Source of the DNA: Narcine bancroftii
Lineage: Eukaryota
Direction: 5' to 3'
Assembly: GCF_036971445.1 (NCBI RefSeq)
Contig: NC_091471.1
Location: forward strand, 992,001-1,056,000
Length of the DNA: 64,000 bases
The notes beneath the pieces are model-generated. The model was not told the origin of the DNA. It searched no databases and saw only the letters and a list, made by a program, of their open reading frames with translations. Within the stretch, counting starts at the first letter, position 1. Every line of letters begins with the position of its first letter. The translations under genes were made by a program, and so were the position numbers. Positions 1-63,139 of the stretch are shown here, piece by piece.

Positions 1-598
1 TAGAGGTGTGTCTCAGAGATCAGAGCTGGGGCCATTGTCGTTTGTCATCTCTGTCAGTGATCTGGAATGATAATGTGGTAAATAGGATCAGTTTGCAGAT
101 TAAACAAAGATTGGAGGCATTGTGGACAGTGACTATGGTTTTCAAAACTTGCAGAGGGAACTGGATCAGCTGGAAAAATGGCAGATGGAATTTAATGCAG
201 ACAAGTATGAGGTGTTGCATTTTAAAATTACAAAGTACGTTAGGATGTTCATGATAAATAGTAGAGCGCTGAGGAGTGCAGGACGACACAGAAAATCTGG
301 GAATATTGATGTTGCTGGGACTTCAGGAATATAAAAGGTTTAGACAAAGTAAATATAGGTCGGCTTTTTCCATGGAGGTGAGATACAAACCAGAAGACAC
401 GGGTTACAGGTGAAAAAGGAAATGTTTAGGGGAACTTGTTCACACAGAGAGTAGTGGGAGTTCAGAATGAGCTGCCAGCTAAAGTGATGAGTGTGGGCTT
501 ATTTTAATATTTAAGAAAAATTTGGACTTGTGTGTGGATGAGAGTGGAATGGACTAGGTACAGGTCACTGAAACTAAAACTCTATTTTCTGTGCTGCA
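1..598 (+). mobile_element. CR1 LINE 3' fragment (decayed RT C-terminus and 3' UTR)
   Basis: Frameshifted translation resembles CR1 ORF2 (GFQNLQRELDQLEKWQMEFNADKYEVLHF). It is homologous to the CR1 copies at 44508-46345 and 59093-60015. Confidence 0.85.
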
Positions 599-619
599 TG
601 TTCCGTTCCCCTCACCCCA

Positions 620-3600: not shown

Positions 3601-3900
3601 CCCCATCCCCCCTCTGTCCTTCTCCTCCTCCCCATCCCCCCTCTGTCCTTCTCCTCCCCCTCCATCCCCTCTCTGTCTTCTCCTCTTCCCCATCCCCCCT
3701 CGTCCTTCTCCTCTTCCCCCCATCCCCCCTCTGTCCTTCTCCTCCTCCCCATCCCCCCTCTGTCCTTCTCCTCCTCCCCATCCCCCCTCTGTCCTTCTCC
3801 TCCTCCCCCCATCCCCTCTCTGTCCTTCTCCTCCTCCCCATCCCCCCTCTGTCCTTCTCCTCCCCCCCATCCCCCCCCGTCCTTCTCCTCCCCTCCCCCC
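620..3900. repeat. Polypyrimidine minisatellite A, unit ~29 bp (CCCCATCCCCCCTCTGTCCTTCTCCTCCT)
   Basis: Directly visible tandem array. It is degenerate at 620-950 and regular from about 1400 to 3880. Confidence 0.97.
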
Positions 3901-4009
3901 ACCACCACCCCCACCCACCGCTCTCCCTCCCTCCCACGACCCCCTCCTTTGCCCTCCGACTGCTGTCCCTCCCATCCGTGCTGCCCGTGGGGGGGGGGGG
4001 GGGGGGCAC

Positions 4010-4420
4010 ATACTGGCCAGGCCGTTGTCAGGGACCCTTCTCCCGGATCCCCCCACGTGTGACAGGAGGCGCCGTCCCGTCCCTTCCCGGCCCGACTGTG
4101 AGGAACGAAGCCCCGGCCGGTCCCGCTGCCGCTCACCCCCCGGCAGCACCGGCTCCAACGATGGCCAGGCCCGTGCCCCGGACACTCGGGAAACCCTCGC
4201 CCGCCCGGGACGAGTCTCACCTCTGGCCGCGGCCTCCTCCGTGGACCGGCCCGTTGCTGAGGAAACGACGCTGACGGACCTGGTGACGTCAACGCGCCCA
4301 TGTCTGAACCGAGCCCGGACGTCACGCGACGGGGCGGCCGCAGCCCGGGGAGGAGGGGCAAAAGAAGCTGTCAATCAGAGAAGGGCCACGGCCGGGCAGT
4401 CCCTGCGCATGCGCACATGG
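4010..4420 (-). promoter_or_regulatory. CpG-island promoter-like module, copy 1
   Basis: CpG-dense. It contains a perfect NRF1 palindrome TGCGCATGCGCA (4404-4415), a PBX/PREP decamer TGATTGACAG on the minus strand (4368-4377) and a CRE TGACGTCA (4284-4291). It is an inverted homologue of 9945-10160. Strand is inferred. Confidence 0.6.
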
Positions 4421-4740
4421 GCTTCCCGGGGCTTTTCTGGATGGAATCGGGCCCTGAGAAAGAGAAGGGGAACGGGGTGGGGGGACAAGGGGAGGGGAAC
4501 AAGACGACGTTTCCATCGGACGATGAACTCAGTCGGGTGACGGGACAGAGACGAGGTTCCCATCATCTGATGAACTCAGCCAGGTGACAATACAGAGATG
4601 AGACGAGACGTGATGAATTGTCGATATAGGTTAAAAAAAACTCTGCTGTGTTCCAGGCAATGGAAGTTGAGGTTGTGCTGGGTTGAATGGCAGCATCTTC
4701 CCCAGATTCACACGTGGAAAATTTATGCTCATCCACATGA

Positions 4741-5190
4741 CAGTGAAATGGTGCAGAGGTGGTGGAAATGTCGAGGTGAAAGCGATCAGTGGACAAGTGA
4801 AACCTGGCCTTGTGTCTGCAAATATGATCGGTCAGGGGCAGAGTTTAGATCAGAAATGGAGAGGGGACTCAGAGAGGGGAGGGCCTGATGCAGCTGGGTT
4901 GTAGAATTAAATAAAAGGGGGTTTCGAATGTCTGGAGCAGAACTTGGCCTTTGAGATGTATTGTCCTAAATGACAGAACTTCAGACTTTTTCTGAGACCA
5001 GCTTTGTTCAAAGACAATCGCTCAATGTCTTTAATGGCGATGACCGTTACCCAGAAATCTCTTCGGCCAAAAAAGCACCCTATCAACATGAAAGCAGGGA
5101 GCGCGCAGGCGTACAAGAAGTGACGTCATGGCACGTGGGTTACGCAAAAGCTCTCGGCCCTTGTCAGGGACCGAAGGTGATTCAGCGCTT
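4741..5190 (+). repeat. Segmental duplicate (ZNF upstream cassette, copy 1)
   Basis: Collinear with 42444-42596, 46877-46951 and 47553-47740, for example AAACCTGGCCTTGTGTCTGCAAATATGATC and GACCGTTACCCAGAAATCTCTTCGGCCAA. Confidence 0.92.
5101..5137 (+). promoter_or_regulatory. Candidate proximal promoter of the ZNF gene (NRF1-like, CRE, E-box)
   Basis: GCGCAGGCG, TGACGTCA (5121-5128) and CACGTG (5132-5137). The paralogue at 47661-47695 has TGCGCAGGCGCA, GGAAGTG and CACGTG. Confidence 0.5.
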
Positions 5191-5192
5191 GG

Positions 5193-5855
5193 TCCGGAAC
5201 GGAGCGTCCCGGAGCGGAGGATTCCGGAACGGAGCGCTGGATCCCGGAGCGGAGTATTAAGGAACGGAGCACTGAGTCCCGGAACGGAGTATTAAGGAAC
5301 TGAGCACTGGGTCCCGGAGCGGAGTATCCCGGAATGGAGCGTCCCGGAGCGGAGGATTCCGGAATGGAACGCTGGGTCCTGGAGCGGAGTATTAAGGAAT
5401 GGAGCGCTGGATCCCAGAGCGGAGTATTAAGGAACGGAGCGCTGGGTCCAGGAGCGGAATATTAAAGAACGGAGCGCTGGGTCCCAGAGCGGAGTATCCC
5501 AGAGCGGAGCATCCCGGAACGGAACACTGGGTTCCGGAGCGGAGGATTCTGCAACTGAGCGCTGGGTCCCGGAGCGTAGTTTCCCGGAACGGAGCGCCGG
5601 GTCCCAGAGCGGAGGATTCCGGAACGGAACGGTGGGTCCCAGAGCAGAGTATCCCAGAACAGAACGCTGGGTCTTGGAGCGGAGTATCCCGGAACAGAAC
5701 GCTGGGTCTTGGAGCGGAGTATCCTGGATTGGAGCGCTGGATCCCGGAGCGGAGTATTCAGGAACGGAGTGCTGGGTCCCCGAGCGGAGTATCCCTGAAC
5801 GGAGCTGCAGTTCCCGTAACAGTCCCGGAACAGAGCGGAGTGCTGGTTCCCGGAT
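5193..5855. repeat. 35-bp minisatellite B (GGAACGGAGCGCTGGGTCCCGGAGCGGAGTATTAA)
   Basis: Units start at 5261, 5296, 5361, 5396, 5431 and 5466 (35-bp period), with a few shorter units. Confidence 0.95.
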
Positions 5856-6041
5856 AGGGTGGCTCCCGTGGATCTGGGGCTTGCACCGCCCGGCAAGAGA
5901 TCGCTTATCCCCGAGTCCCAACCTTGGTGTGGATTTATCCTGCTGCCCAGCTCTCCAGGAACCTCCATCGCGCTGGGCACACGCTGTGTGCCCAGACTGC
6001 ATTGATTTATCTCCTGGTCACACTCTCTCATCCCCACAGTG

Positions 6042-6797
6042 ATGAACCCACTTCAGTGCTCCGATTGTGGCAAGAACTTTAAATGGTTGAGCCAGTTAAC
6101 GATACACCGGCGGGTCCACACTGGGGAGAGACCCTTCACCTGCCCAGAGTGTGGCAAGGGATTCACCAAGTCGTCCCATCTGCTGTCCCACCAGCGGGTT
6201 CACACTGGGGAGAGGCCCTTCATCTGCCCTGAGTGCGGGAAGGGGTTCACCCACACATCCGACCTACGGAGGCACCAGCGGGTCCACACCGGGGAGAGAC
6301 CATTCACCTGCCACAAGTGTGAGAAGGGTTTTACGAACAGGTCGAACCTTGAGATACACCAGCGGATGCACACCGGGGAGAGGCCCTGCACCTGCCCTGA
6401 GTGCGGCAAGGGCTTCACCCAGACCTCCAACCTGCTGAGACACCAGTGGGTCCACACCGGGGAGAAGCCGTTTGTCTGCCCTGATTGTGGCAAGGGCTTC
6501 ACCCAGTCGTCTGACCTGCAGACCCATCAGCGAGACCATACCGGGGAAAAGCCTTTCATCTGCCCCGAGTGCAAGAAGGCCTTCACCAACAGGTCCAGCC
6601 TTGAGAAACACCGGCGGGTTCACACCGGTGAGAGACCGTTCATCTGCCCTGAGTGCGGCAAGGGGTTCACCCAGTCCTCCAACTTGAGGACCCACCAGCG
6701 GGTCCACACTGGAGAGAGGCCCTTCAGCTGCTTCAGCTGTGGCAAGAACTTCACCCAGTCAGCCAGCCTGTTGAAGCACCAGCGGGTCCACAAATGA
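6042..6797 (+). CDS. C2H2 zinc-finger protein with 9 tandem fingers (possibly the terminal coding exon)
   Basis: Nine intact C-x2-C-x12-H-x3-H fingers with TGE(R/K)P linkers. ATG is at 6042, there is an in-frame upstream stop at 6003, and a pyrimidine tract plus CAG (possible splice acceptor) ends at 6039. No KRAB, SCAN or BTB domain is visible. Confidence 0.93.
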   Translation: MNPLQCSDCGKNFKWLSQLTIHRRVHTGERPFTCPECGKGFTKSSHLLSHQRVHTGERPFICPECGKGFTHTSDLRRHQRVHTGERPFTCHKCEKGFTNRSNLEIHQRMHTGERPCTCPECGKGFTQTSNLLRHQWVHTGEKPFVCPDCGKGFTQSSDLQTHQRDHTGEKPFICPECKKAFTNRSSLEKHRRVHTGERPFICPECGKGFTQSSNLRTHQRVHTGERPFSCFSCGKNFTQSASLLKHQRVHK

Positions 6798-7330
6798 GCC
6801 AGATTCTGTGGCTGATCTGACCCCTCACTCCTGTTGTTCTAACCAGGGTCGGACTGTGTCCAACGTCCTGTCCCCATTCTAGCTGATCTTAACATCCTGT
6901 AACCGTCATGCAGATTAATGTACTTGGCACATGCCAATTAAATGACCTGGACCTTGAACATCCAGCAGATTGTCTGTTGAATAGTGAATGGTCTTTCTGC
7001 TGCTCAACCACAGAACTGTACAGAAGCAGGTCATTTGGCCCATCTATTCTGTGTTGAACTATTATTCTGCCCAGTCCCATTGACTTTAAGGCAACTAAGA
7101 GCTTCTCCCTCCTCTGGTGACAAGGGGTCTGGTTGAATCTGGATGAGGGAGCCTTGCCATTTGAGGAGCAGTACCTGGGTGGGGGGGGGGGGGGGTGGAA
7201 ACCTTTGCCACAAGTGGGGATGGGTGTTTCATAAACTGTAATTTGGAAACTCAAGGTGAATGAATGTTTTCCGAACCAAGGGGCATGGAGTTTGGGTGGG
7301 CATTCAGAGTTACGTCGCTGATCAGCCTTG

Positions 7331-7540
7331 ATAGGTCATAAAGTTGTGCAGCACATAAAGAAGACCCTTCACCCCAGCTTGTTTGTGTTGCCCCATTTGG
7401 CCTACACACCTGTTACACCCTTCTGATCCATGTTCATGAATATATATCTTCTAAGTTCATCCACCTCCACTACTTCTTCTGGCAGCTCCATGCCAGTTCC
7501 TCTGGCAACTCCATGTGCCCCCTCCCACCCTCTGAGTAAA
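7331..7540 (-). mobile_element. Highly decayed CR1 3' end remnant
   Basis: Resembles the reverse complement of the CR1 3' ends elsewhere in the window (ACCTCCACTACTTCTTCTGGCAGCTCCA). Confidence 0.45.
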
Positions 7541-7554
7541 GTTAAATAGGGGAG

Positions 7555-8370
7555 TTTGCAGACGCTGGGACTGCAGAGCGATACTGGAGAAACTCAGCAG
7601 GTCACTCAACATCTATAATGACCCATGTTTCGGGCCTGATCCCTGTGTGTTTTTACTACAATCACAGTGTCTGCAGACTTTTGTGTGTCATCGGTGTGCT
7701 ATACCTGCTTGTTGTATGGAGAGGGGGGCAGGTATCGATTGTTTGACCCTTGCTTCACAATCAGGAGGTGCGATTATCTATTACCCAAGGTCTAATGTAT
7801 GTGTGATTTGTGTTATTGCTTTGTGTGTGTGTCTGTGTCTGTGGGTTTGTGTGTGTTTTTTCCCTGTGTGAATTCTATAGTTTACACTATTACATGCCCA
7901 GGACTTACTGCTTCGTGAACCCTTCCAACATGTTCCCACCATCATGGCCCTCTGTCCTCTTCCCCATCATCTCTCAGCTTCTTTCCCTACCACCTGTACC
8001 AGCCTGTTACCCCCCCCCCTCTCAGTTTTCATTGCCCCACACACCCTCTAACTTGCTTAACCATCTCTCTGGTCCCTTTCCTCCTCGTTCCCCCGGACCA
8101 CCTTCCCTTCCACCAATTAGAATGCACCTTTCTCAGCCCTCTGCCCCTTTACTCCCTCCCCCTCCATCACCTCATGGCCCTTGCTTCTTCCTCCTGCCAC
8201 CTGTCACCGGCCAGCCCATGCCCCTTCCCCAACACCCAGCCCATTTTTCGGGTGAAGGGTTCCTGCTTGAGATGTTGATTGTTGATTTTGTTGCACAGAT
8301 GCTGCCCGACCCACTGAATTCTCCCAGCACTCTGCGCCCTGCTCCAGCTTCCCAGCATCTGTGGGCTTCT
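7555..8370. mobile_element. Decayed Penelope-like element terminal repeats in inverted arrangement
   Basis: 7555-7645 (CTGGAGAAACTCAGCAGGTCA...GTTTCGGGCCTGA) and 8248-8370 (GATGCTGCCCGACCCACTGAATTCTCCCAGCA) are related in opposite orientations. They resemble Penelope pseudo-LTR ends with eroded hammerhead-like cores. Confidence 0.45.
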
Positions 8371-8876
8371 CGTTTGATCTCCTTCACTGCTGGATCCCCA
8401 TGTGGGTTTGAATATCTTCGATCAGCGGGTGGTCCAGTTCACCCATGTGAGCTCACGGCTCTTGGTTCAAATCTCGTCTGGAGAAAGTCCACCCCTGACT
8501 CTCCACCTTCCCCTCATCCATCTTGCTGGATTCCCGTGTCCCCATTTCAGGAATTGGAGAGAACGTCCAAACCTTGGGCCCCACAGGTGTGAGTACATGC
8601 ACTGAGTTCGAGTTCAATATCACCTGACTGTACAATCAGATCAAACAGTGTTTCTCTGGGGGAGAGAGAGAGAAACCGTCACATACACATGCACGACATT
8701 GAATTAGGCATTGTCTTTGCGGGAGACTGTGACCAATGGTTTTCCTTGGGGATCAGCTCTGGTGTTGACACGGAAAACATAGTGGTGGCTGTTGGACGTG
8801 AAATAATGACACACACAGATCTGGGTAAATCAGGTCTCGTTTACTTGAGTCATGCATGTATTCTTTTAAAACACTA

Positions 8877-9905
8877 CCCCTTCACCCCTTTATCCCCCCC
8901 TTGACCCCCTCTGCCCCTTTATTCCCCCTTGACCCCATCCCCTTCACCCCTTTATCCCCCTTGACCCCCTCTGCCCCTTTATTCCCCCTTGACCCCATCC
9001 GCTTCACCCCCTCCCCTTCACCCCCTTTGACCCCCTCCCCTTTATCCCCCCTTGACCCCCTCTGCCCCTTTACTCCCCCTTGACCCCATCCCCTTCACCC
9101 CTTTATCCCCCTTGACCCCCTCCCCTTCACCCCCTTTGACCCCCTCCCCTTTATCCCCCCTTGACGCCCTCTGCCCCTTTATTCCCCCTTGACCCCCTCC
9201 CCTTCACCCCCTTTGACTCCCTCTGCCCCTTTATTCCCCCTTGACCCCCTCCCCTTCACCCCTTTATCCCCCCTTGACCCCCTCCCCTTCACCCCTTTAT
9301 CCCCCCTTGACCCCCTCCCCTTGACGCCCTCCCCTTCACCCCCTTTGACCCCCTCCCCTTTATCCCCCCTTGACCCCCTCTGCCCCTTTACTCCCCCTTG
9401 ACCCCCATCCCCTTCACCCCTTTATCCCCCTTGACCCCCTCGACCCCTTTATCCCCCTTGACCCCCTCCCCTTCACCCCCCTTTGACCCCCTCTATACCC
9501 CCTTGACGCCCTCTGCCCCTTTATTCCCCCTTGACCCCCTCCCCTTCACCCCCTTTGACTCCCTCTGCCCCTTTATTCCCCCTTGAACCACCTCCAACCC
9601 CTTTATCCCCCCTTGACCCCCCTCCCCTTCACCCCTTTATCCCCCCTTGACCCCCTCCCCTTCACCCCTTTATCCCCCCTTGACCCCCTCCCCTTCACCC
9701 CTTTATCCCCCCCTTGACCCCCTCCCCTTCACCCCCCTTGACCCCCTCCCCTTCACCCCCCTTGACCCCCTCCCCCTTGACCCCCTCCCCTTGACCCCCT
9801 CCCCTTCACCCCCTCCCCTTCACCCCTCCCCTTCACACCCCCTTGACCCCCTCCCTTCACCCCCCCTTAACCCCCTCCCCTTACCCCCCTTTATTCCCCC
9901 TTGAC
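8877..9905. repeat. Polypyrimidine minisatellite C, unit ~32 bp (TTGACCCCCTCCCCTTCACCCCTTTATCCCCC) made of ~10-11-bp subunits
   Basis: Directly visible tandem array. Confidence 0.95.
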
Positions 9906-9944
9906 CTCACTCTCCTTCGCCCCTTTATCCACCTTGCCCCTGCT

Positions 9945-10130
9945 CCTCTGATTGACAGCTCCCTCCGCCCCACCTCCCGTGCAACGGCCGCCCCATCACG
10001 TGATGGCCGGAGCCGGCTCAGGCGTGAACGCGTTGACGTCACAGGCCCATGAGATCGTGGTCAGCGTCAACAACGGCCTGGTCCCACGGGGCGGGGCGAG
10101 CGGCATCGATGCCCGCGGGGACTTCGTCCT
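9945..10130 (+). promoter_or_regulatory. CpG-rich promoter-like module, copy 2, wedged between two satellites
   Basis: TGATTGACAG (9949-9958), GC box (9965-9970), 14-bp palindrome CCATCACGTGATGG (9993-10006, E-box) and CRE TGACGTCA (10034-10041). It is a reverse-complement homologue of 4100-4385. Confidence 0.6.
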
Positions 10131-13100
10131 CCTCCCATCCGGCCCAGGGCAACTCCTGTCCCCCTCCCATCCGGCCCAGGCAACCCCTGACCCCCTCCCA
10201 TCCGGCCCCGGGCAGCCGCTATCCCCCCTCCCATCCGGCCCGGGCAGCCCCTGTCCCCCTCCCATCCGGCCCGGGCAGCCCCTGTCCCCCCTCCCATCCG
10301 GCCCGGGCAGCCGCTATCCCCTCCCATCCGGCCCGGGCAGCCGCTATCCCCCTCCCATCCGGCCCGGGCAGCTGCTATCCCCCTCCCCCCCCCCATCCGG
10401 CCCGGGCAGCCCCTGTCCCCTCCCATCGGGCCCGGGCAGCCCCTGTACCCCTCCCATCCGGCCCGGGCAGCCCCTGACCCCCTCCCATCCGGCCCGGGCA
10501 GCCCCTGTCCCCCTCCCCTCGGTCCCGGGCAGCCCCTGTCCCCCTCCCATCCGGGCCGGGCAGCCCCTGTCCCCCCTCCCATCAGGCCCGGGCAGCCCCT
10601 GGTCCCCTCCCATCCCAGTCCGGGCAGCCCCTGTCCCCCCACCCATCCGGCCCGGGCAGCCCCTGTCCCCCTCCCCTCGGTCCGGGCAGCCCCGGTCCTC
10701 CTCCCATCCGGCCCAGGCAGCCCTTGACCCCCTATCCGGCCCAGGCAAGCCCCTGTCCCCTCCCATCCGGCCCGGGCAGCCCTGTCCCCCTCCCATCCGG
10801 CCCGGGCAGCCCCTGTCACCCTCCCATCCAGTCCGGGCAGCCCCTGTCCCCCTCCGATCCGGCCCCAGGCAACCCCTGACCCCCTATCCGGCCCAGGCAG
10901 CCCCTGTCCCCTCCCATCCGGCCCAGGCAGCCCTTGACACACTATCCGGCCCCAGTCAGCCCCTGTCCCATCCCATCCGGCCCGGGCAGCCCCCTGTCCC
11001 CCTCCCATCCGGCCCGGGCAGCCCCTGTCCCCCTCCCATCCGGTCCGGGCAGCCCCTGTCCCCCTCCGATCCGGCCCAGGCAACCCCTGACCCCCCTCCC
11101 ATCCGGCCCGGGCAGCCGCTATCCCCCTCCCATCCGGCCCCGGGCAGCCCCTGTCCCCCTCCCATCCGGCCCGGGCAGCCGCTATCCCCCTCCCATCCGG
11201 CCCGGGCAACCCCTGTCCCCCTCCCATCGGGCCCGGGCAGCCCCCTGTACCCCTCCCATCCGGCCCGGGCAGCCCCTGACCCCCTCCCATCCGGCCCGGG
11301 CAGCCCCTGTCCCCCTCCCCTCGGTCCGGGCAGCCCCTGTCCCCCTCCCATCCGGCCCAGGCAGCCCCTGTCCCCCTCCCATCCGGCCCAGGCAGCCCTT
11401 GACCCCCTATCCAGCCCAGGCAGCCCCTGTCCCCTCCCATCCAGCCCGGGCAGCCCCTGTCCCCCTCCCCATCCGGTCCCCGGGCAGCCCCCTGTCCCCC
11501 TCCCATCCGGTCCGGGCAGCCCCTGTCCCCCTCCGATCCGGCCCAGGCAACTCCTGTCCCCCTCCCATCCGGCCCAGGCAACCCCTGACCCCCTCCCATC
11601 CGGCCCGGGCAGCCGCTATCACCCCTCCCATCCGGCCCGGTCAGCCCCTGTCCCCCTCCCATCTGGCCCGGGCAGCCCCTGTCCCCCTCCCATCCGGCCC
11701 AGGCAACCCCTGACCCCCTCCCATCCGGCCCGGGCAGCCGCTATCCTCCTCCCATCCGGCCCGGGCAGCCCCTGTCCTCCTCCCATCCGCCCAGGCAGCC
11801 CCTGTCCCCCTCCCATCCGGGCCCAGGCAGCCCTTGACCCCCTATCCGGCCCAGGCAGCCCCTGTCCCCTCCCATCCGGCCCGGGCAGGCCCCCTGTCCC
11901 TCTCCCATCCGGCCCGGGCAGCCCCTGTCCCCCTCCCATCGGGCCCGGGCAGCCCCTGTACCCCTCCCATCCGGCCGGGCAGCCCCTGACCCCCTCCCAT
12001 CCGGCCCGGGCAGCCCCTGTCCCCCTCCCCTCGGTCCGGGCAGCCCCTGTCCCCCTCCCATCCGGGCCGGGCAGCCCCTGTCCCCCTCCCATCAGGCCCG
12101 GGCAGCCCCTGTCCCCCTCCCATCCAGTCCGGGCAGTCCCTGTCCCCCACCCATCCGGCCCCGGGCAGCCCCTGTCCCCCTCCCCTCGGTCCGGGCAGCC
12201 CCTGTCCCCCTGGGCCGGGCAGCCCCTGTCCCCCTCCCATCAGGCCCTGGCAGCCCCTGTCCCCCTCCCATCCAGTCCGGGCAGCCCCTGTCCCCCACCC
12301 ATCCGGCCCGGGCAGCCCCTGTCCCCCTCCCCTCGGTCCGGGCAGCCCCTGTCCTCCTCCCATCCGGCCCAGGCAGCCCCTGTCCCCCTCCCATCCGGCC
12401 CAGGCAGCCCTTGACCCCCTATCCGGCCCAGGCAGCCCCTGTCCCCTCCCATCCGGCCCGGGCAGCCCCTGTCCCCCTCCCATCCGGCCCGGGCAGCCCC
12501 TGTCCCCCTCCGATCCGGCCCAGGCAAACACCTGACCCCCTCCCATCCGGCCCGGCAGCCGCTATCCCCCTCCCATCCGGCCCGGGCAGCCCCTGTCCCC
12601 CTCCCATACGGCCCGGGCAGCCGCTATCCCCCTCCCATCCGGCCCGGGCAGCCCCTATCCCCCTCCCATCGGGCCCGGGCAGCCCCTGTACCCCTCCCAT
12701 CCGGCCCGGGCAGCCCCTGTCCCCCTCCCATCCGGCCCGGGCAGCCCCTGACCCCCTCCCATCCGGCCCGGGCAGCCCCTGTCCCCCTCCCCTCGGTCCG
12801 GGCAGCCCCTGTCCCCCTCCCATCCGGGCCGGGCAGCCCCTGTCCCCCTCCCATCAGGCCCTGGCAGCCCCTGTCCCCCTCCCATCCAATCCGGGCAGCC
12901 CCTGTCCCCCACCCATCCGGCCCGGGCAGCCCCTGTCCCCCTCCCCTCGGTCCGGGCAGCCCCTGTCCTCCTCCCATCCGGCCCAGGCAGCCCCTGTCCC
13001 CCCTCCCATCCGGCCCAGGCAGCCCTTGACCCCCTATCCGGCCCAGGCAGCCCCTGTCCCCTCCCATCCGGCCCGGGCAGCCCCTGTCCCCCTCCCATCC

Positions 13101-31100: not shown

Positions 31101-34100
31101 ATCCGGCCCTGGCAGCCCCTGTCCCCCTCCCATCCGGCCCAGGCAAGCACCTGTCAATCTCCCATCCGGCCTAGGCAAGCCCCTGTCCCCCTCCCATCCG
31201 GCACAGGCAAGCCCCTGTCACCCTCCAATCCGGCCCGGGCAGCCCCTGTCCCCCTCCCATCCGGCCTGGGCAGCCCCTGTCCTCCTCCCATCCGGCCTGG
31301 GCAGCCCCTGTCCTCCTCCCATCCGGCCCGGGCAGCCCCTGTCCCCCTCGGTCCGGGCAGCCCCTGTCCCCCTCCCATCCGGCCCAGGCAAGCCCCTGTC
31401 CCTCTCCCATCCGGCCCAGGCAGCCCCTGTCCCCCTCCCCTCGGTCCGGGCAGCCCCTATCCCCTTCCCATCTGGCCCAGGCAGCCCCTGTCCCCCTCCC
31501 CCCGGTCCGGGCAGCCCCTGTCCCCCTCCCATCCGGCCCAGGCAGCCCCTGTCCCCCTACCCTCGGTCCGGGCAGGCCCTGTCCCCCTCCCATCCGGCCC
31601 AGGTAGCCCCTGTCCCCCTCCCATCCGGCCCAGGCAGCCCCTGTCCCCCTACCACCCGGCCCAGGAAGCCCCTGTCCCCCTCCCATCCGGCCCGGGAAGC
31701 CCCTGTCGCCCTCCCATCCGGCCCAGGCAGCCCCTGTCCCCCTCCCATCCGGCCCAGGCAGCCCCTGACCCCCTCCCATCTGGCCCAGGCAGCCCCTGAC
31801 CCCCTCCCATCCGGCCCAGGCAGCCCCTGTCCCTCTCCCCTCGGTCCGGGCAGCCCCTGTCCCCCTCCCATCCGGCCTGGGCAGCCCCTGTCCCCCTCCC
31901 ATCCGGTCCGGGCAGCCCCAGTCCCCCTCCCATCCGGTCCGGGCAGCCCCTGTCCCCCTCCCATCCGGTCCGGGCAGCCCCTGTCCCCCTCCGATCCAGC
32001 CCAGGCAGCCCCTGTCCCCCTCCCCTCGGTCCGGGCAGCCCCTGTCTCCCTCCGATCCGGCCCTGGCAGCCCCTGTCCCCCTCCCATCCGGCCCTGGCAG
32101 CCCCTGTCCCCCTCCCATCCGGTCCGGGCAGCCCCTGTCCCCCTCCCATCCGGTCCGGGCAGCCCCTGTCCCCCTCCCATCCGGCCCAGGCAGCACCTGT
32201 CCTCCTCCCTTCCGGCCCAGGCAGCCCCTGTCCGCCTCCCCTCGGTCCTGGCAGCCCCTGTCCCCCTCCCATCCGGCACAGGCAAGCCCCTGTCCCCCTC
32301 GGTCCGGGCAGCCCCTGTCCCCCTCCCATCCGGCCGAGGCAAGCCCCTGTCCCTCTCCCATCCGGCCCAGGCAGCCCCTGTCCCCCTCCCCTCGGTCCGG
32401 GCAGCCCCTATCCCCCTCCCATCTGGCCCAGGCAGCCCCTGTCCCCCTCCCCCCGGTCCGGGCAGCCCCTGTCCCCCTAGCCTCGGTCCGGGCAGGCCCT
32501 GTCCCCCTCCCATCCGGCCCAGGTAGCCCCTGTCCCCCTCCCCTCGGTCCGGGCAGCCCCTGTCCCCCTCCCATCCGGCCCAGGCAAGCCCCTGTCCCTC
32601 TCCCATCTGGCCTAGGCAGCCCCTGTCCCCCTCCCCTCGGTCCGGGCAGCCCCTGTCCCCCTCCGATCCGGCCCAGGCAGCCCCTGTCCCCCTCCCCTCG
32701 GTCCGGGCAGCCCCTGTCCCCCTCCCATCCAGCCCCGGCAGCCCCTGACCCCCTCCCATCCGGCCCAGGCAGACCCTGTCCCTCTCCCCTCGGTCCGGGC
32801 AGCCCCTGTCCCCCTCCCATCCGGCCTGGGCAGCCCCTGTCCCCCTCCCATCCGGCCCGGGCAGCCCCTGTCCCCCTCGGTCCGGGCAGCCCCTGTCCCC
32901 CTCCCATCCGGCCCAGGCAAGCCCCTGTCCCTCTCCCATCCGGCCCAGGCAGCCCCTGTCCCCCTCCCCTCGGTCCGGGCAGCCCCTATCCCCCTCCCAT
33001 CTGGCCCAGGCAGCCCCTGTCCCCATCCCCCCGGTCCGGGCAGCCCCTGTCCCCCTCCCATCTGGCCCAGGCAGCCCCTGTCCCCCTACCCTCGGTCCGG
33101 GCAGGCCCTGTCCCCCTCCCATCCGGCCCAGGTAGCCCCTGTCCCCCTCCCATCCGGCCCAGGCAGCCCCTACCACCCGGCCCAGGAAGCCCCTGTCCCC
33201 CTCCCATCCGGCCCGGGAAGCCACTGTCCCCCTCCCATCTGGCCCAGGCAGCCCCTGTCCCTCTCCCATCCGGCCCGGGCAACCCCCGTCCCCCTCCCAT
33301 CCAGCCCAGGCAGCCCCTGTCCGTCTCCCATCCGGCCCAGGCAACCCCTGTCCCCCTCCCATCCAGCCCCGGCAGCCCCTGTCCCCCTCCCATCCGGCCC
33401 AGGCAGCCCCTGTCCCCCTCCCATCCGGCCCAGGCAGCCCCTGACCCCCTCCCATCTGGCCCAGGCAGCCCCTGACCCCCTCCCATCCGGCCCAGGCAGC
33501 CCCTGTCCCTCTCCCCTCGGTCCGGGCAGCCCCTGTCCCCCTCCCATCCGGCCTGGGCAGCCCCTGTCCCCCTCCCATCCGGTCCGGGCAGCCCCTGTCC
33601 CCCTCCCATCCGGTCCGGGCAGCCCCTGTCCCCCTCCCATCCGGTCCGGGCAGCCCCTGTCCCCCTCCGATCCAGCCCAGGCAGCCCCTGTCCCCCTCCC
33701 CTCGGTCCGGGCAGCCCCTGTCTCCCTCCGATCCGGCCCGGGCAGCCCCTGTCCCCCTCCCATCCGGCCCTGGCAGCCCCTGTCCCCCTCCCATCCGGCC
33801 CAGGCAAGCCCCTGTCAATCTCCCATCCGGCCTAGGCAAGCCCCTGTCCCTCTCCCATCCGGCCCAGGCAGCCCCTGTCCCCCTCCCCTCGGTCCGGGCA
33901 GCCCCTGTCCCTCTCCCATCCGGCCCAGGCAGCCCCTGTCCCCCTCCCCTCGGTCCGGGCAGCCCCTGTCCCCCTCCGATCCGGCCCTGGCAGCCCCTGT
34001 CCCCCTCCCCTCGGTCCGGGCAGCCCCTGTCCCCCTCCCATCCGGCCCAGGCAAGCCCCTGTCCCTCTCCCATCTGGCCTAGGCGGCCCCTGTCCCCCTC

Positions 34101-37100
34101 ACCTCGGTCCGGGCAGCCCCTGTCCCCCTCCGATCCGGCCCAGGCAGCCCCTGTCCCCCTCCCCTCGGTCCGGGCAGCCCCTGTCCCCCTCCCATCCGGC
34201 CCGGGCAGCCCCTGTCCCCCTCTCATCCGTCCCGGGCAGCCCCTGTCCCCCTTCCATCCGGCCCAGGCAGCCCCTGTCCTCCTCCCATCCGGCCCGGGCT
34301 GCCCCTGTCCCCCTCCCCTCGGTCCGGGCAGCCCCTGTCCCCCTCCCATCCAGCCCCGGCAGCCCCTGACCCCCTCCCATCTGGCCCAGGCAGCCCCTGA
34401 CCCCCTCCCATCCGGCCCAGGCAGCCCCTGTCCCTCTCCCCTCGGTCCGGGCAGCCCCTGTCCCCCTCCCATCCGGCCTGGGCAGCCCCTGTCCCCCTCC
34501 CATCCTGTCCGGGCAGCCCCTGTCCCCCTCCCATCCGGTCCGGGCAGCCCCTGTCCCCCTCCCATCCGGCCCAGGCAGCACCTGTCCTCCTCCCTTCCGG
34601 CCCAGGCAGCCCCTGTCCGCCTCCCCTCGGTCCTGGCAGCCCCTGTCCCCCTCCCATCCGGCACAGGCAAGCCCCTGTCCCCCTCGGTCCGGGCAGCCCC
34701 TGTCCCCCTCCCATCCGGCCCAGGCAAGCCCCTGTCCCTCTCCCATCCGACCCAGGCAGCCCCTGTCCCCCTCCCCTCGGTCCGGGCAGCCCCTATCCCC
34801 CTCACATCTGGCCCAGGCAGCCCCTGTCCCCCTCCCCCCGGTCCGGGCAGCCCCTGTCCCCCTCCCATCCGGCCCAGGCAGCCCCTGTCCCCCTACCCTC
34901 GGTCCGGACAGGCCCTGTCCCCCTCCCATCCGGCCCAGGTAGCCCCTGTCCCCCTCCCATCCGGCCCAGGCAGCCCCTGTCCCCCTCCCACCCGGCCCAG
35001 GAAGCCCCTGTCCCCCTCCCATCCGGCCCGGGCAGCCCCTGTCCCCCTCCCATCCGGTCCGGGCAGCCCCTGTCCACCTCCCATCCGGCCCAGGCAGCAC
35101 CTGTCCTCCTCCCATCCGGCCCAGGCAGCCCCTGTCCGCCTCCCCTCGGTCCTGGCAGCCCCTGACCCCCTCCCATCCGGCACAGGCAAGCCCCTGTCCC
35201 CCTCCAATCCGGCCCGGGCAGCCCCTGTCCCCCTCCGATCCAGCCCAGGCAGCCCCTGTTCCCCTCCCCTCGGTCCGGGCAGCCCCTGTCCCCCTCCCAT
35301 CCGGCCTGGGCAGCACCTGTCCCCCTCCCATCCGGTCCGGGCAGCCCCTGTCCCCCTCCCATCCGGCCCTGGCAGCCCCTGTCCCCCTCCCATCCGGCCC
35401 TGGCAGCCCCTGTCCCCCTCCCATCCGGCCCAGGCAAGCCCCTGTCCCCCTCCCATCCGGTCCGGGCAGCCCCTGTCTCCCTCCGATCCGGCCCGGGCAG
35501 CCCCTGTCCCCCTCCCATCCGGCCCTGGCAGCCCCTGTCCCCCTCCCATCCGGCCCAGGCAAGCCCCTGTCAATCTCCCATCCGGCCTAGGCAAGCCCCT
35601 GTCCCTCTCCCATCCGGCCCAGGCAGCCCCTGTCCCCCTCCCCTCGGTCCGGGCAGCCCCTGTCCCTCTCCCATCCGGCCCAGGCAGCCCCTGTCCCCCT
35701 CCCCTCGGTCCGGGCAGCCCCTGTCCCCCTCCGATCCGGCCCTGGCAGCCCCTGTCCCCCTCCCCTCGGTCCGGGCAGCCCCTGTCGCCCTCCCATCCGG
35801 CCCAGGCAAGCCCCTGTCCCTCTCCCATCCGGCCCAGGCAGCCCCTGTCCCCCTCCCCTCGGTCCGGGCAGCCCCTATCCCCCTCCCATCTGGCCCAGGC
35901 TGCCCCTGTACCCCTCCCCCCGGTCCGGGCAGCCCCTGTCCCCCTCCCATCCGGCCCAGGCAGCCCCTGTCCCCCTACCCTCGGTCCGGGCAGGCCCTGT
36001 CCACCTCCCATCCGGCCCAGGCAGCCCCTGTCCCCCTCCCACCCGGCCCAGGAAGCCCCTGTCCCCCTCCCATCCGGCCCGGGCAGCCCCTGTCCCCCTC
36101 CCATCCGGTCCGGGCTGCCCCTGTCCCCCTCCGATCCAGCCCAGGCAGCCCCTGTCCCCCTCCCCTCGGTCCGGGCAGCCCCTGTCTCCCTCCGATCCAG
36201 CCCGGGCATCCCCTGTCCCCCTCCCATCCGGCCCTGGCAGCCCCTGTCCCCCTCCCATCCGGCCCAGGCAAGCACCTGTCAATCTCCCATCCGGCCTAGG
36301 CAAGCCCCTGTCCCTCTCCCATCCGGCCCAGGCAGCCCCTGTCCCCCTCCCCTCGGTCCGGGCAGCCCCTGTCCCTCTCCCATCCGGCCCAGGCAGCCCC
36401 TGTCCCCCTCCCCTCGGTCCGGGCAGCCCCTGTCCCCCTCCCATCCGGTCCTGGCAGCCCCTGTCCCCCTCCCCTCGGTCCGGGCAGCCCCTGTCCCCCT
36501 CCCATCCGGCCCAGGCAAGCCCCTGTCCCTCTCCCATCTGGCCTAGGCAGCCCCTGTCCCCCTCCCCTCGGTCCGGGCAGCCCCTGTCCCCCTCCCCTCG
36601 GTCCGGGCAGCCCCTGTCCACCTCCGATCCGGCCCAGGCAGCCCCTGTCACCCTCCCCTCGGTCCGGGCAGCCCCTGTCCCCCTCCCATCCAGCCCCGGC
36701 AGCCCCTGACCCCCTCCCATCTGGCCCAGGCAGCCCCTGACCCCCTCCCATCCGGCCCAGGCAGCCCCTGTCCCTCTCCCCTCGGGCCGGGCAGCCCCTG
36801 TCCCCCTCCCATCCGGCCTGGGCAGCCCCTGTCCCCCTCCCATCCGGTCCGGGCAGCCCCTGTCCCCCTCCCATCCGGTCCGGGCAGCCCCTGTCCCCCT
36901 CCCATCCGGCCCAGGCAGCACCTGTCCTCCTCCCATCCGGCCCAGGCAGCCCCTGTCCGCCTCCCCTCGGTCCTGGCAGCCCCTGTCCCCCTCCCATCCG
37001 GCACAGGTAAGCCCCTGTCCCCCTCAGTCCGGGCAGCCCCTGTCCCCCTCCCATCCGGCCCAGGCAAGCCCCTGTCCCTCTCCCATCCGGCCCAGGCAGC

Positions 37101-40100
37101 CCCTGTCCCCCTCCCCTCGGTCCGGGCAGCCCCTATCCCCCTCCCATCTGGCCCAGGCAGCCCCTGTCCCTCTCCCCCCGGTCCGGGCAGCCCCTGTCCC
37201 CCTCCCATCCGGCCCAGGCAGCCCCTGTCCCCCTCCCATCCGGCCCAGGCAGCCCCTGACCCCCTCCCATCTGGCCCAGGCAGCCCCTGACCCCCTCCCA
37301 TCCGGCCCAGGCAGACCCTGTCCCTCTCCCCTCGGTCCGGGCAGCCCCTGTCCCCCTCCCATCCGGCCTGGGCATCCCTGTCCCCCTCCCATCCGGTCCG
37401 GGCAGCCCCTGTCCCCCTCCCATCCGGTCCGGGCAGCCCCTGTCCCCCTCCCCTCGGTCCGGGCAGCCCCTGTCCCTCTCCCATCCGGCCCAGGCAGCCC
37501 CTGTCCCCCTCCCCTCGGTCCGGGCAGCCCCTGTCCCCCTCCGATCCGGCCCTGGCAGCCCCTGTCCCCCTCCCCTCGGTCCGGGCAGCCCCTGTCGCCC
37601 TCCCATCCGGCCCAGGCAAGCCCCTGTCCCTCTCCCATCCGGCCCAGGCAGCCCCTGTCCCCCTCCCCTCGGTCCGGGCAGCCCCTATCCCCCTCCCATC
37701 TGGCCCAGGCTGCCCCTGTACCCCTCCCCCCGGTCCGGGCAGCCCCTGTCCCCCTCCCATCCGGCCCAGGCAGCCCCTGTCCCCCTACCCTCGGTCCGGG
37801 CAGGCCCTGTCCACCTCCCATCCGGCCCAGGCAGCCCCTGTCCCCCTCCCACCCGGCCCAGGAAGCCCCTGTCCCCTTCCCATCCGGCCCGGGCAGCCCC
37901 TGTCCCCCTCCCATCCGGTCCGGGCTGCCCCTGTCCCCCTCCGATCCAGCCCAGGCAGCCCCTGTCCCCCTCCCCTCGGTCCGGGCAGCCCCTGTCTCCC
38001 TCCGATCCAGCCCGGGCATCCCCTGTCCCCCTCCCATCCGGCCCTGGCAGCCCCTGTCCCCCTCCCATCCGGCCCAGGCAAGCACCTGTCAATCTCCCAT
38101 CCGGCCTAGGCAAGCCCCTGTCCCTCTCCCATCCGGCCCAGGCAGCCCCTGTCCCCCTCCCCTCGGTCCGGGCAGCCCCTGTCCCTCTCCCATCCGGCCC
38201 AGGCAGCCCCTGTCCCCCTCCCCTCGGTCCGGGCAGCCCCTGTCCCCCTCCCATCCGGTCCTGGCAGCCCCTGTCCCCCTCCCCTCGGTCCGGGCAGCCC
38301 CTGTCCCCCTCCCATCCGGCCCAGGCAAGCCCCTGTCCCTCTCCCATCTGGCCTAGGCAGCCCCTGTCCCCCTCCCCTCGGTCCGGGCAGCCCCTGTCCC
38401 CCTCCCCTCGGTCCGGGCAGCCCCTGTCCACCTCCGATCCGGCCCAGGCAGCCCCTGTCACCCTCCCCTCGGTCCGGGCAGCCCCTGTCCCCCTCCCATC
38501 CAGCCCCGGCAGCCCCTGACCCCCTCCCATCTGGCCCAGGCAGCCCCTGACCCCCTCCCATCCGGCCCAGGCAGCCCCTGTCCCTCTCCCCTCGGGCCGG
38601 GCAGCCCCTGTCCCCCTCCCATCCGGCCTGGGCAGCCCCTGTCCCCCTCCCATCCGGTCCGGGCAGCCCCTGTCCCCCTCCCATCCGGTCCGGGCAGCCC
38701 CTGTCCCCCTCCCATCCGGCCCAGGCAGCACCTGTCCTCCTCCCATCCGGCCCAGGCAGCCCCTGTCCGCCTCCCCTCGGTCCTGGCAGCCCCTGTCCCC
38801 CTCCCATCCGGCACAGGTAAGCCCCTGTCCCCCTCAGTCCGGGCAGCCCCTGTCCCCCTCCCATCCGGCCCAGGCAAGCCCCTGTCCCTCTCCCATCCGG
38901 CCCAGGCAGCCCCTGTCCCCCTCCCCTCGGTCCGGGCAGCCCCTATCCCCCTCCCATCTGGCCCAGGCAGCCCCTGTCCCTCTCCCCCCGGTCCGGGCAG
39001 CCCCTGTCCCCCTCCCATCCGGCCCAGGCAGCCCCTGTCCCCCTCCCATCCGGCCCAGGCAGCCCCTGACCCCCTCCCATCTGGCCCAGGCAGCCCCTGA
39101 CCCCCTCCCATCCGGCCCAGGCAGACCCTGTCCCTCTCCCCTCGGTCCGGGCAGCCCCTGTCCCCCTCCCATCCGGCCTGGGCATCCCTGTCCCCCTCCC
39201 ATCCGGTCCGGGCAGCCCCTGTCCCCCTCCCATCCGGTCCGGGCAGCCCCTGTCCCCCTCCCATCCGGTCCGGGCAGCCCCTGTCCCCCTCCGATCCAGC
39301 CCAGGCAGCCCCTGTCCCCCTCCCCTCGGTCCGGGCAGCCCCTGTCTCCCTCCGATCCGGCCCGGGCAGCCCCTGTCCCCCTCCCATCCGGCCCTGGCAG
39401 CCCCTGTCCCTCTCCCATCCGGCCCAGGCAGCCCCTGTCCCCCTCCCCTCGGTCCGGGCAGCCCCTATCCCCCTCCCATCTGGCCCAGGCAGCCCCTGTC
39501 CCCCTCCCCCCGGTCCGGGCAGCCCCTGTCCCCCTCCCATCCGGCCCAGGCAGCTCCTGTCCCCCTCCCATCCGGCCCAGGCAGCCCCTGACCCCCTCCC
39601 ATCTGGCCCAGGCAGCCCCTGACCCCCTCCCATCCGGCCCAGGCAGCCCCTGTCCCTCTCCCCTCGGTCCGGGCAGCCCCTGTCCCCCTCCCATCCGGCC
39701 TGGGCCGCCCCTGTCCCCCTCCCATCCGGTCCGGGCAGCCCCTGTCCCCCTCCCATCCGGTCCGGGCAGCCCCTGTCCCCCTCCCATCCGGTCCGGGCAG
39801 CCCCTGTCCCCCTCCGATCCAGCCCAGGCAGCCCCTGTCCCCCTCCCCTCGGTCCGGGCAGCCCCTGTCTCCCTCCGATCCGGCCCGGGCAGCCCCTGTC
39901 CCCCTCCCATCCGGCCCTGGCAGCCCCTGTCCCCCTCCCATCCGGCCCAGGCAAGCCCCTGTCAATCTCCCATCCGGCCTAGGCAAGCCCCTGTCCCTCT
40001 CCCATCCGGCCCAGGCAGCCCCTGTCCCCCTCCCCTCGGTCCGGGCAGCCCCTGTCCCTCTCCCATCCGGCCCAGGCAGCCCCTGTCCCCCTCCCCTCGG

Positions 40101-42150
40101 TCCGGGCAGCCCCTGTCCCCCTCCGATCCGGCCCTGGCAGCCCCTGTCCCCCTCCCCTCGGTCCGGGCAGCCCCTGTCCCCCTCCCATCCGGCCCAGGCA
40201 AGCCCCTGTCCCTCTCCCATCTGGCCTAGGCAGCCCCTGTCCCCCTCCCCTCGGTCCGGGCAGCCCCTGTCCCCCTCCGATCTGGCCCAGGCAGCCCCTG
40301 TCCCCCTCCCCTCCGTCCGGGCAGCCCCTGTCCCCCTCCCATCCAGCCCCGGCAGCCCCTGACCCCCTCCCATCTGGCCCAGGCAGCCCCTGACCCCCTC
40401 CCATCCGGCCCAGGCAGACCCTGTCCCTCTCCCCTCGGTCCGGGCAGCCCCTGTCCCCCTCCCATCCGGCCTGGGCAGCCCCTGTCCCCCTCCCATCCGG
40501 TCCGGACAGCCCCTGTCCCCCTCCCATCCAGTCCGGGCAGCCCCTGTCCCCCTCCCATCCGGTCCGGGCAGCACCTGTCCCCCTCCCATCCGGTCCGGGC
40601 AGCCCCTGTCCCCCTCCCATCCGGTCCGGGCAGCCCCTGTCCCCCTCCCATCCGGTCCGGGCAGCCCCTGTCCCCCTCCCATCCGGTCCGGGCAGCCCCT
40701 GTCCCCCTCCGATCCAGCCCAGGCAGCCCCTGTCTCCCTCCCCTCGGTCCGGGCAGCCCCTGTCCCCCTCCGATCCGGCCCGGGCAGCCCCTGTCCCCCT
40801 CCCATCCGGCCCTGGCAGCCCCTGTCCCCCTCCCATCCGGCCCAGGCAAGCCCCTGTCCCTCTCCCATCCGGCCTAGGCAAGCCCCTGTCCCTCTCCCAT
40901 CCGGCCCAGGCAGCCCCTGTACCCCTCCCCTCGGTCCGGGCAGCCCCTGTCCCTCTCCCATCCGGCCCAGGCAGCCCCTGTCTCCCTCCCTCCGATCCGG
41001 CCCAGGCAGCCCCTGTCCCCCTCCCATCCGGCCCTGGCAGCCCCTGTCCCCCTCCCCCTGGTCCGGGCAGCCCCTGTCCCCCTCCCATCCGGCCCAGGCA
41101 AGCACCTGTCCCTCTCCCATCTGGCCTAGGCAGCCCCTGTCCCCCTCCCCTCGGTCTGGGCAGCCCCTGTCCCCCTCCGATCCGGCCCAGGCAGCCCCTG
41201 ACCCCCTCACCTCGGTCCGGGCAGCCCCTGTCCCCCTCCCATCCGGCCCGGGCAGCCCCTGTCCCCCTCTCATCCGGCCCGGGCAGCCCCTGTCCCCCTT
41301 CCATCCGGCCCGGGCAGCCCCTTTCCTCCTCCCATCCGGCCCGGGCTGCCCCTCTCCCCCTCCCCTCGGTCCGGGCAGCCCCTGTCCCCCTCCCATCCGG
41401 CCCAGGCAAGCCCCTGTCCCTCTCCCATCCAGCCCAGGCAGCCCCTGTCCCCCTCCCATCCGGTCCGGGCAGCCCCTGTCCCCCTCCGTTCCGGCCCGGG
41501 CAGCCCCTGTCCCCCTCCCCTCGGTCCGGGCAGCCCCTGTCCCCCTCCCATCCGGCCCGGGCAGCCCCTGTCCCCCTCCCCTCGGTCCGGGCAGCCCCTG
41601 TCCCCCTCCCATCCGGCCCAGGCAGCACCTGTCCTCCTCCCATCCGGCCTGGGCAGCCCCTGTCCGCCTCCCCTCGGTCCTGGCAGCCCCTGTCCCCCTC
41701 CCATCCGGCACAGGCAAGCCCCTGTCCCCCTCCAATCCGGCCCGGGCAGCCCCTGTCCCCCTCCCATCCGGCCTGGGCAGCCCCTGTCCTCCTCCCATCC
41801 GGCCCGGGCAGCCCCTGTCCCCCTCCCACCCGGCCCAGGAAGCCCCTGTCCCCCTCCCATCCGGCCCGGGCAGCCACTGTCCCCCTCCCATCCGGTCCAG
41901 GCAGCCCCTGTCCCTCTCCCATCCGGCCCAGGCAGCCCCTGTCCCCCTCCCCTCGGTCCGGGCAGCCCCTGTCCCCCTCCCATCCGGCCCAGGCAGCCCC
42001 TGTCCCCCTACGCTCGGTCCGGGCAGCCCCTGTCCCCCTCCCATCCGGCCCAGGCAGCCCCTGTCCCCCTCCCATCCGGCCCAGGCTGCCCCTGTCCCTC
42101 TCCCATCTGGCCCGGGCAGCCCCCTGTCCCCTTATCCTCTGGCCCGGGCA
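10131..42150. repeat. 32-kb GC-rich satellite D, units of 31 bp (CTCCCATCCGGCCCGGGCAGCCCCTGTCCCC) and 30 bp (CTCCCCTCGGTCCGGGCAGCCCCTGTCCCC)
   Basis: Continuous tandem array of roughly 1000 units (32 kb / 31 bp). Higher-order duplications are evident from repeated variant patterns and identical ORFs at fixed offsets. Confidence 0.99.
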
Positions 42151-42600
42151 ACACCTTGACCCCCCCCCCCCCCCCCACTTCGGTCACACGGATGGGATGG
42201 TGCAGCAGTTGGACTGGGGAAGGCAGCGAGTGTGAGGGGAAGGGGTGGAAGGCGTGAAGGGGGAAGGGATCATGATGCGTGATGGGGAAGGTGGAGGGAG
42301 ACAGAGGAACAAGGAGAACAGAAGGAGGAAGGAAATGTGGAGGTAGGGAGGGGAGCGGCACCAAAGTCCCGCTAGCCTGACAGCAGTGTCTGAGGTCTGC
42401 ACACAAGGGGCTGACTCGTTTCTGGCCCTGAGCAGTTTGACTAAGTGAAGTGGTGCAGAGGTGGTGGAAATGTAGAGGTGAAAGTGACCAGTGGATGTGT
42501 GAAACCTGGCCTTGTGTCTGCAAATATGATCAGTCAGGGGCAGAGTTGAGATCAGAAATGGAGAGGGGACAAATGATGCTTCTGGGTTGTAGAATCCAAA

Positions 42601-47255: not shown

Positions 47256-47981
47256 CTCTTCTCTGCTGGAGAAACTTAGTGGGTCGAGCAGCATCGGTGG
47301 AAGAGGAAAAGAATCCCTAACATTGTAGGCAGCGCCTCCCGACATTCCCCTCCTCACGTTGATAGAAAATGTTCTGGTATGTTCGGAGGAGGCGCTGGGA
47401 AATAATCCTGGAATATTTATTCCTCAATCAGCAGGAAAACAGTGACCGTTGTCGTCATTGTTGATGAGAACTTTCTGTGCATTGATTGGCGGCCTGTTTC
47501 ATCCATCTTACCAGTCACAGTAGGGGAGATTGATTTGGGAGACATGGGCATGAAACCAGCTTTGTTTAAAGACAATCGCTCAATGTCTTTAATGGTGATG
47601 ACCGTTACCCAGAAATCTCTTCGGCCAATAAAGCACCCTATCAACTTGTGAAAGAAGGGAGTGCGCAGGCGCACGGGAAGTGACTGCACGTGACCTGCAC
47701 TAAAACTCCCAGTGCTTTTCAGATTGAAGGCGGTTCAGCACTGGGTTCCAGAGTCTGGGAGCAGAGTGCAGCAATGTGTCCCGGAATGGAGGGCTCGCTT
47801 AGTTTTGGGGCTTGCAATGCCTGGCTAGAGATCGCTTCTCTCTGGGGGGGGGGGTCTCAGCCCTAGGCCCAGCCTTGGTGTTGATTTAACCCACTGCCCA
47901 GCTCTCTGGAAGCCTCCATCAGGCTGAGCAAAGTGCGTGGGACAGGACTGCATTGATTTATCCCTTGGGGATAAATATCAT

Positions 47982-48197
47982 GGGGTTTACCTGTTCCTCC
48001 CACTTGCTGAGACACCATCGGGTCCATACAGGGGAGAGACCCTTCGTCGCCTCGAGTGTGGAAAGTGATTCGCTCGGTCCTCCCACCTCTTGAGACACAA
48101 GCAGGCCCACATCGGTGAGAGGCTGTTCACCTGCTCCGATTGCAGGAAGGAGTTCACCCAGTTGAACAGCCTGGTGAATCACCAGTGAGTCCACACA
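47982..48197 (+). pseudogene. C2H2 zinc-finger pseudogene, paralogue of 6042-6797
   Basis: GFTCSSHLLRHHRVHTGERPF / [45 protein letters not shown], with a frameshift and two stops. It lies at the position equivalent to the intact gene. Confidence 0.9.
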
Positions 48198-48309
48198 ACG
48201 CGTGCAGAATGGAATATTTAAACATCACTCACAAACACTAGGTCTGTGGTCATTGAGGCAACAAATCAAAACAGGTTTTGGTTTTGTCAATTTGCAATTT
48301 GTTTTCGGG

Positions 48310-63122: not shown

Positions 63123-63139
63123 TCCCCCAAGCTTTACAG

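Follow-up and report, generated by a model that had tools for sequence, protein, structure and literature searches.

The window analysed here, a 64,000-nucleotide stretch at C8:992001-1056000 of a 3.33-Gb genome whose gene and LINE content suggests a cartilaginous fish, contains two inverted copies of a CpG-rich cassette. This cassette is probably the shared promoter and first exon of about 100 C2H2 zinc-finger (ZNF) genes. Tandem duplications probably start repeatedly from the G/C tracts and short direct repeats in it, leaving many copies with a private minisatellite of their own. The two parts of this reading are judged together, and rest on the observed size of the family, the enrichment of arrays over control loci, recurrent seed positions, the privacy of two satellites in the window, splicing of copy 1 across one of them, and the decay of copy 2. 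The feature exists and extends beyond the original prediction, which had described a pair of paralogues with reciprocal satellite expansions, and it is probably neutral.

A genome search for further copies raised the family to at least 97 members, 77 found by similarity searches and 20 by the pattern of the exon, with array units mapping to recurrent spots in the cassette. The figure for the overlap between the pattern and similarity sets, 39 of 59, is a count made by eye. A profile search turned up three additional copies. The cassette profile runs, in order, through an NRF1-type site, a TALE-type decamer, a GC box, an E-box, a CRE, a short exon and a splice donor. A ZNF was found within ~5 kb of 42 of the 77 copies, divergent in 31 and downstream on the same strand in nine (one copy has both), with three copies showing some other arrangement only. 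The other 35 have no ZNF within ~5 kb, which is partly an effect of the search distance, since copy 1 of the window appears to splice toward a ZNF 5.6 kb away and so lies past the 5-kb limit.

Copy 1 (3892-4480, minus strand) probably supplies a leftward ZNF gene with its promoter and first exon. It carries an NRF1-type site (4404-4415), a TALE-type decamer (4368-4377), a GC box (4331-4337) and a CRE (4284-4291). Its GC content is 0.71 and its CpG observed/expected ratio 0.76, and the consensus span of the cassette has no TATA box, so that copy 1 has the features of a CpG-rich, TATA-less promoter with factor motifs. RNA-like contigs cover 4014-4250. One of them, X2/9, spans 4014-4247, and its loose end corresponds to C8:991037-991066; the junction defines a canonical GT-AG intron of 4,947 bp that has satellite A inside it. 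The family splice donor lies at 4215-4222, and the donor in use is at 4013. It should be noted that the sequencing runs, all from one study, were taken as RNA by guess, yet a spliced join is what RNA yields. Splicing was thus observed in an RNA-like contig, and copy 1 is live. The window holds the first part of this intron 1 (1-4013, minus strand), which ends outside it at C8:991067, and satellite A (966-3891, minus strand; 29 bp x ~101) is G-rich on the transcribed sense strand. Contig evidence for splicing of the first exon comes from one contig, joining 4014 to the exon at C8:991066. The onward link to the leftward ZNF exon, ~330 bp further, is predicted from splice sites only, through a 140-nt second exon and its acceptor. 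The leftward open reading frame (C8:989333-990592) is intact, with 419 aa and 14 PF00096 stretches, or fingers. An intact C2H2 frame was found downstream of copy 1 and not downstream of copy 2.

Head-to-head with the leftward gene lies a second intact C2H2 open reading frame (6042-6797, plus strand; 251 aa, nine fingers). Upstream of it is a second promoter-like module (4993-5193, plus strand; CRE at 5121-5128), which has a paralogue at 47551-47746 (81%). Minisatellite B (5194-5805, plus strand; 35 bp x ~17) resembles its own downstream flank at 5806-6045 (p = 0.001). All four predicted arrays, A to D, are present in the window; they had been traced to a single cassette, and B instead lies outside it, in the second module (4993-6045). 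Besides the intact 251-aa frame, the window has two broken ZNF remnants. A ZNF remnant at 63130-63460 (plus strand) retains about three to four fingers and had no adjacent cassette copy in the profile search. An Rfam search of 3850-10200 at the gathering score gave no match to a known structured RNA.

The core of copy 2 (9943-10125, plus strand) has a TALE-type decamer (9949-9958), an E-box (9996-10003) and a CRE (10034-10041). It is preceded by satellite C (8877-9930, plus strand), a C-rich array with 24-34-bp units, and followed by satellite D (10126-42150, plus strand), with 31 bp x ~1040 and with blocks duplicated inside the array, the offsets being 1.8, 2.6, 5.1 and 6.0 kb. The copy 2 tail (42157-42350, plus strand) consists of a C run, a landmark at 42187-42196 and a G-rich tract. 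The five landmarks on which collinearity of the two copies had been proposed were all found in place, and three blocks scored above 1000 dinucleotide shuffles. The core block, rc(4226-4390) against 9931-10110, scored 108 (p = 0.001), and beyond this core the middle block (p = 0.001) and the tail block with the C run removed (p = 0.005) were also significant. A broken ZNF remnant with 3' flank (47982-48464, plus strand), which has stops in all three frames, aligns on the opposite strand with the 3' end and flank of the leftward gene (77% over 527 nt), which makes copy 2 an inverted paralogue of the gene as a whole. Copy 2 lacks ~95 bp including the family donor, and also the NRF1-type site. With its donor deleted, its ZNF broken and a 32-kb satellite within it, copy 2 is dead as judged from its sequence. 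The window is an old inverted duplicate of one ZNF gene, with one copy live and the other decayed. A local inversion of copy 2 relative to its ZNF was considered and rejected, because the remnant at 47982 is a paralogue of the leftward gene; the same cassette-module-ZNF order in other copies also contradicts it.

The predicted reciprocity, with each copy retaining as single-copy sequence the piece expanded in the other, did not hold. Scores of array units against the window partner were not above shuffles (A, p = 0.66; D, p = 0.16-0.67; C, p = 0.36; B, p = 0.08). Decay has turned the D seed into a C18 run in copy 1, and other family members retain the seed. The seeds are features of the cassette family and not of the window partner, and the two copies are just two among at least 97 rather than a reciprocal system. 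By pairwise identity, copy 1 ranks second of 73 for copy 2, and copy 2 ranks 31st of 75 for copy 1; a tree of the 210-bp cores was star-like, with no usable resolution. Two pairs of same-strand pieces, 4742-4868/42444-42570 and 4920-4994/46877-46951, are 93-97% identical, well beyond the ~75% seen for the cassette and at other loci, and in copy 2 LINE-like insertions lie between them. Their identity suggests a later duplication or conversion.

Arrays were defined as tandem repeats lying no more than 1 kb from the anchor, with a period of at least 10, at least three copies and a TRF score of at least 100; ZNF repeats were left out. Minisatellites were found at 46 of 75 cassettes, which are related copies (ten of the arrays are one common 51-bp family), and at 5 of 75 pooled controls, which are motif-anchored loci unannotated as promoters (55 anchored on YY1- or ETS-type motifs and 20 picked near the clusters), with a median GC of 0.58 versus 0.65 for cassettes, a figure that includes the arrays themselves. 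The 75 cassettes are the 77 minus L141 and L200, the overlapping partners in head-to-head pairs; the 20 pattern-only copies stand outside the array counts, and the controls exclude L287 and L291-L294 for overlaps. The unpruned set gave 47/77 cassettes against 3/55 controls, the CpG-island-like subset 42/64 against 1/23, and the subset with GC of at least 0.60 44/67 against 1/17. When the shared 51-bp family was dropped and contact with the cassette span was required, 41 of 75 cassettes were still array-bearing. At least one array occurs in 20 of 26 genomic bins, and array coverage at cassette loci is highest, at 48%, immediately downstream of the CRE and drops to 6-9% at 2.5-4 kb. Together with recurrent unit positions and the privacy of A and D, these counts bear out the predicted proneness of the cassette to form satellites in place. 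The 51-bp array (3.6-23.6 copies; L137, L140, L143, L147, L148, L156, L157, L161, L162 and L166) lies directly before the divergent ZNF coding exon, resembles an acceptor region and differs in copy number among close paralogues. A control set anchored on NRF1 motifs (1/34) was set aside as a poor control: only three of its loci are CpG-island-like, and its sole positive, L227, is a cassette copy.

Satellites A and D are confined to this locus. All 105 exact genome matches of a D 26-mer fall inside the window in satellite D, and all 33 of an A 30-mer fall inside the window in satellite A; the genome-wide exact counts cover these two arrays. Insertion of satellites that occur widely without the cassette, which would have spoken against birth in place, was thus not what the exact matches of A and D showed. 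Exact pattern counts were used because a similarity search with satellite D returned only 66-77% matches and missed its own locus.

The 82 arrays fell into 34 unit clusters, with 33 arrays in one low-complexity cluster whose seeds are not placeable. Compared with the consensus of 29 array-free copies, the units of 22 of 87 arrays matched at p < 0.05 (~4 expected), many of them near their own position; the other 65 were not significant in this test, and both A (p = 0.80) and D (p = 0.24) are among them. Recurrent seed spots are the upstream pyrimidine tract (C and several other arrays), the block with the TALE site and GC box, and two G-rich tracts that follow the exon. Single-copy seeds were found in unexpanded copies for two arrays of the window. 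The unit of satellite C resembles the pyrimidine tract that family members have upstream, around -230 relative to the CRE (p = 0.005), and the D unit scored a mean of 22.9 on 30 homologous family segments versus 16.4 +/- 0.95 for shuffles (p = 0.003). Satellite A is of low complexity and gave no such match. The D seed is the family segment immediately before the tail landmark, flanked on each side by a copy of a 9-nt direct repeat. This repeat occurs zero, one, two and three times in 1, 13, 9 and 1 of 24 copies, and the intervening piece is cleanly absent in five of the 24, so that the cassette copies show the seed lost, present once, or repeated two or three times, with short direct repeats on either side. 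Array-free cassettes also have more G4-prone windows than CpG-island controls (0.071 versus 0.012, p = 6e-5), and their GC skew reverses at the CRE. The arrays follow this strand bias, with 32 of 44 downstream arrays G-rich and 15 of 18 upstream arrays C-rich; satellite D, C-rich on the sense strand, is an exception to the skew rule. Satellite D has a CpG observed/expected ratio of 0.43, a TpG/CpA excess of 1.34 and one CpG column that is about evenly G/A, a base pattern consistent with methylation-driven decay.

As a first step, a 20-35-bp piece between short direct repeats would be duplicated or deleted, by slippage or unequal exchange. The G-quadruplex-prone, skewed sequence flanking a two-way promoter may then favour growth, more so near chromosome ends, and block duplications of 1.8-6 kb could have brought D to 32 kb in the dead copy. 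Most of the tandem duplications are likely neutral.

Several other explanations were weighed against recurrent seeding by the cassette. A regional effect, in which ZNF clusters and chromosome ends turn any GC-rich stretch into minisatellites and the cassette is merely such a stretch, is unlikely, although region does matter: all ten copies within 2 Mb of a contig end have arrays, compared with 35 of 63 interstitial copies, and in one C11 bin arrays occur in just 2 of 14 copies. Large arrays also lie off cassettes in the 264 kb around the window, for example 83 bp x48 at C8:1109875, and elasmobranch chromosome ends are described as enriched in simple tandem repeats in 10.1101/2022.10.17.512540, in which "zinc finger" occurs 0 times. 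However, the interstitial cassettes alone still exceed the controls (35/63 versus 5/75), controls picked near ZNF clusters carry arrays in only 2 of 20 cases, and the arrays are concentrated within 1 kb of the cassette and at recurrent seeds. An origin of the cassette as a mobile element or solo LTR inserted next to ZNF genes, which would make it a known case of element-derived minisatellites, is highly improbable. The copies do lie on at least nine large contigs in both orientations, and 35 of 77 have no ZNF within the search distance, but they cluster with ZNF genes, column conservation tapers off towards either edge, promoter motifs and a splice donor are present in the conserved span, a search of the consensus span gave no polyadenylation signal, and copy 1 appears to splice toward its distant ZNF. 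For the idea of promoter-directed recombination, a search for PRDM9 through SSXRD gave 0 matches, but its controls were blank too.

A role for the arrays in gene regulation was also considered. Silencing of ZNF paralogues, as originally suggested, is not supported: in copy 1 the RNA-like contig is spliced across a 2.9-kb array, and neighbouring ZNF frames scored as intact for 14 of 25 array-bearing copies and for 9 of 19 array-free ones (p = 0.76, by a crude integrity score that is mainly about the divergent gene). Regulatory tuning, whereby expansions are kept for altering the number of factor sites or the length of the first intron and so diversify the expression of ZNF paralogues, is very unlikely. 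In its favour, five copies have amplified a piece with a TALE-type site and a GC box, and arrays accompany an intact CRE more often (27/41 versus 12/34, p = 0.011, one of four tests). Against it, array presence is unlinked to ZNF frame integrity and, among the cassette copies examined, to retention of the TALE site, NRF1 site or donor, and the largest array, D, is located in a dead copy. Of the five amplifying copies, L062 (C8:903724-906308) is split by a 30-bp x80 array of the TALE-site/GC-box block, with 55 TALE-like sites and 37 GC boxes at C8:903.9-906.3 kb, and L185 has 11 exact TALE-type sites. The five are 54-66% alike downstream, and their mutual similarity is no higher than their similarity to the family, which fits independent events; an old shared event is also possible. 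That the promoter of a fast-duplicating ZNF family repeatedly multiplies its own factor-binding block, in at least five independent copies and in one to about 55 sites, seems distinctly doubtful. If true, every paralogue would thereby have a heritable dial for its expression, and new satellites of up to 32 kb would be seeded as well. Large GC-rich arrays also flank L062, at 896.6-903.7 kb and 909.8-914.2 kb.

Satellites have been associated with ZNF genes and promoters before. Beta-satellite blocks reportedly lie among the human 19p12 KRAB-ZNF genes as one dispersed satellite family between genes. The satellites described here are likewise interleaved with a ZNF gene cluster, but differ in being mostly private and derived from the genes' own promoter. 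Variable-number tandem repeats in promoters and first introns can affect expression. The present arrays resemble them as GC-rich tandem repeats in or adjoining promoters, and differ in their recurrent birth across one homologous promoter family, known from sequence only.

Minisatellites are also known to arise inside dispersed elements, including Alu, LTR12, mouse B1 and MaLR, according to Ahmed and Liang 2012 (PMC3389668) and a review (PMC9659126). As in those accounts, a single multi-copy source gives many locus-private arrays with hotspots on the consensus. Unlike the Alu and LTR cases as described there, the arrays here originate from the promoter and first exon that a host gene family shares, likely spread by gene duplication, about 60% of the examined copies have arrays, and some arrays multiply factor-binding sites. 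The seed pattern fits the direct-repeat birth model of Haber and Louis 1998, which is described in PMC3389668 together with the slipped-strand model of Taylor and Breden 2000. That model involves 5-10-bp flanks and a piece gained or lost, and the D seed shows loss as well as one, two and three flanking repeats; in contrast to the descriptions of the models there, these states are found together among paralogues within a single genome and extend to ~1,040 units. PMC3389668 could assign only 6% of element-derived repeats to the direct-repeat and slipped-strand models.

The process is thus known from Alu and LTR elements, and the promoter of a gene family as a recurrent satellite source was not found in the literature searched, which took in few subscription papers. 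Minisatellites and satellites have usually lost their ancestral single copy, which makes their origin difficult to study. The cassette family is a natural series for satellite birth: with ~100 homologous promoters in one genome, and seeds that are absent, single, doubled, tripled or multiplied up to a thousandfold, models of birth and growth become testable. If arrays of binding sites alter expression, they would offer a route for regulatory divergence of zinc-finger paralogues.

Some cassette copies have particular arrangements. Head-to-head inverted pairs are formed by L139/L141 (C11:256.896 Mb) and L193/L200 (C9:210.848-210.850 Mb), whose members are 0.3 and 1.9 kb apart, respectively. L136 has an additional inverted partial copy with a TALE-site array. 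L227 (C1:166.839 Mb), the copy picked as a control, is flanked by 18-bp x137 and 29-bp x92 arrays. At L144 (C1:494.216 Mb), which is array-bearing, a 30-nt promoter-side sequence matches the loose end that contigs from runs X1 and X3 have. These contigs extend far upstream of the exon, and L144 may be strongly or two-way transcribed.
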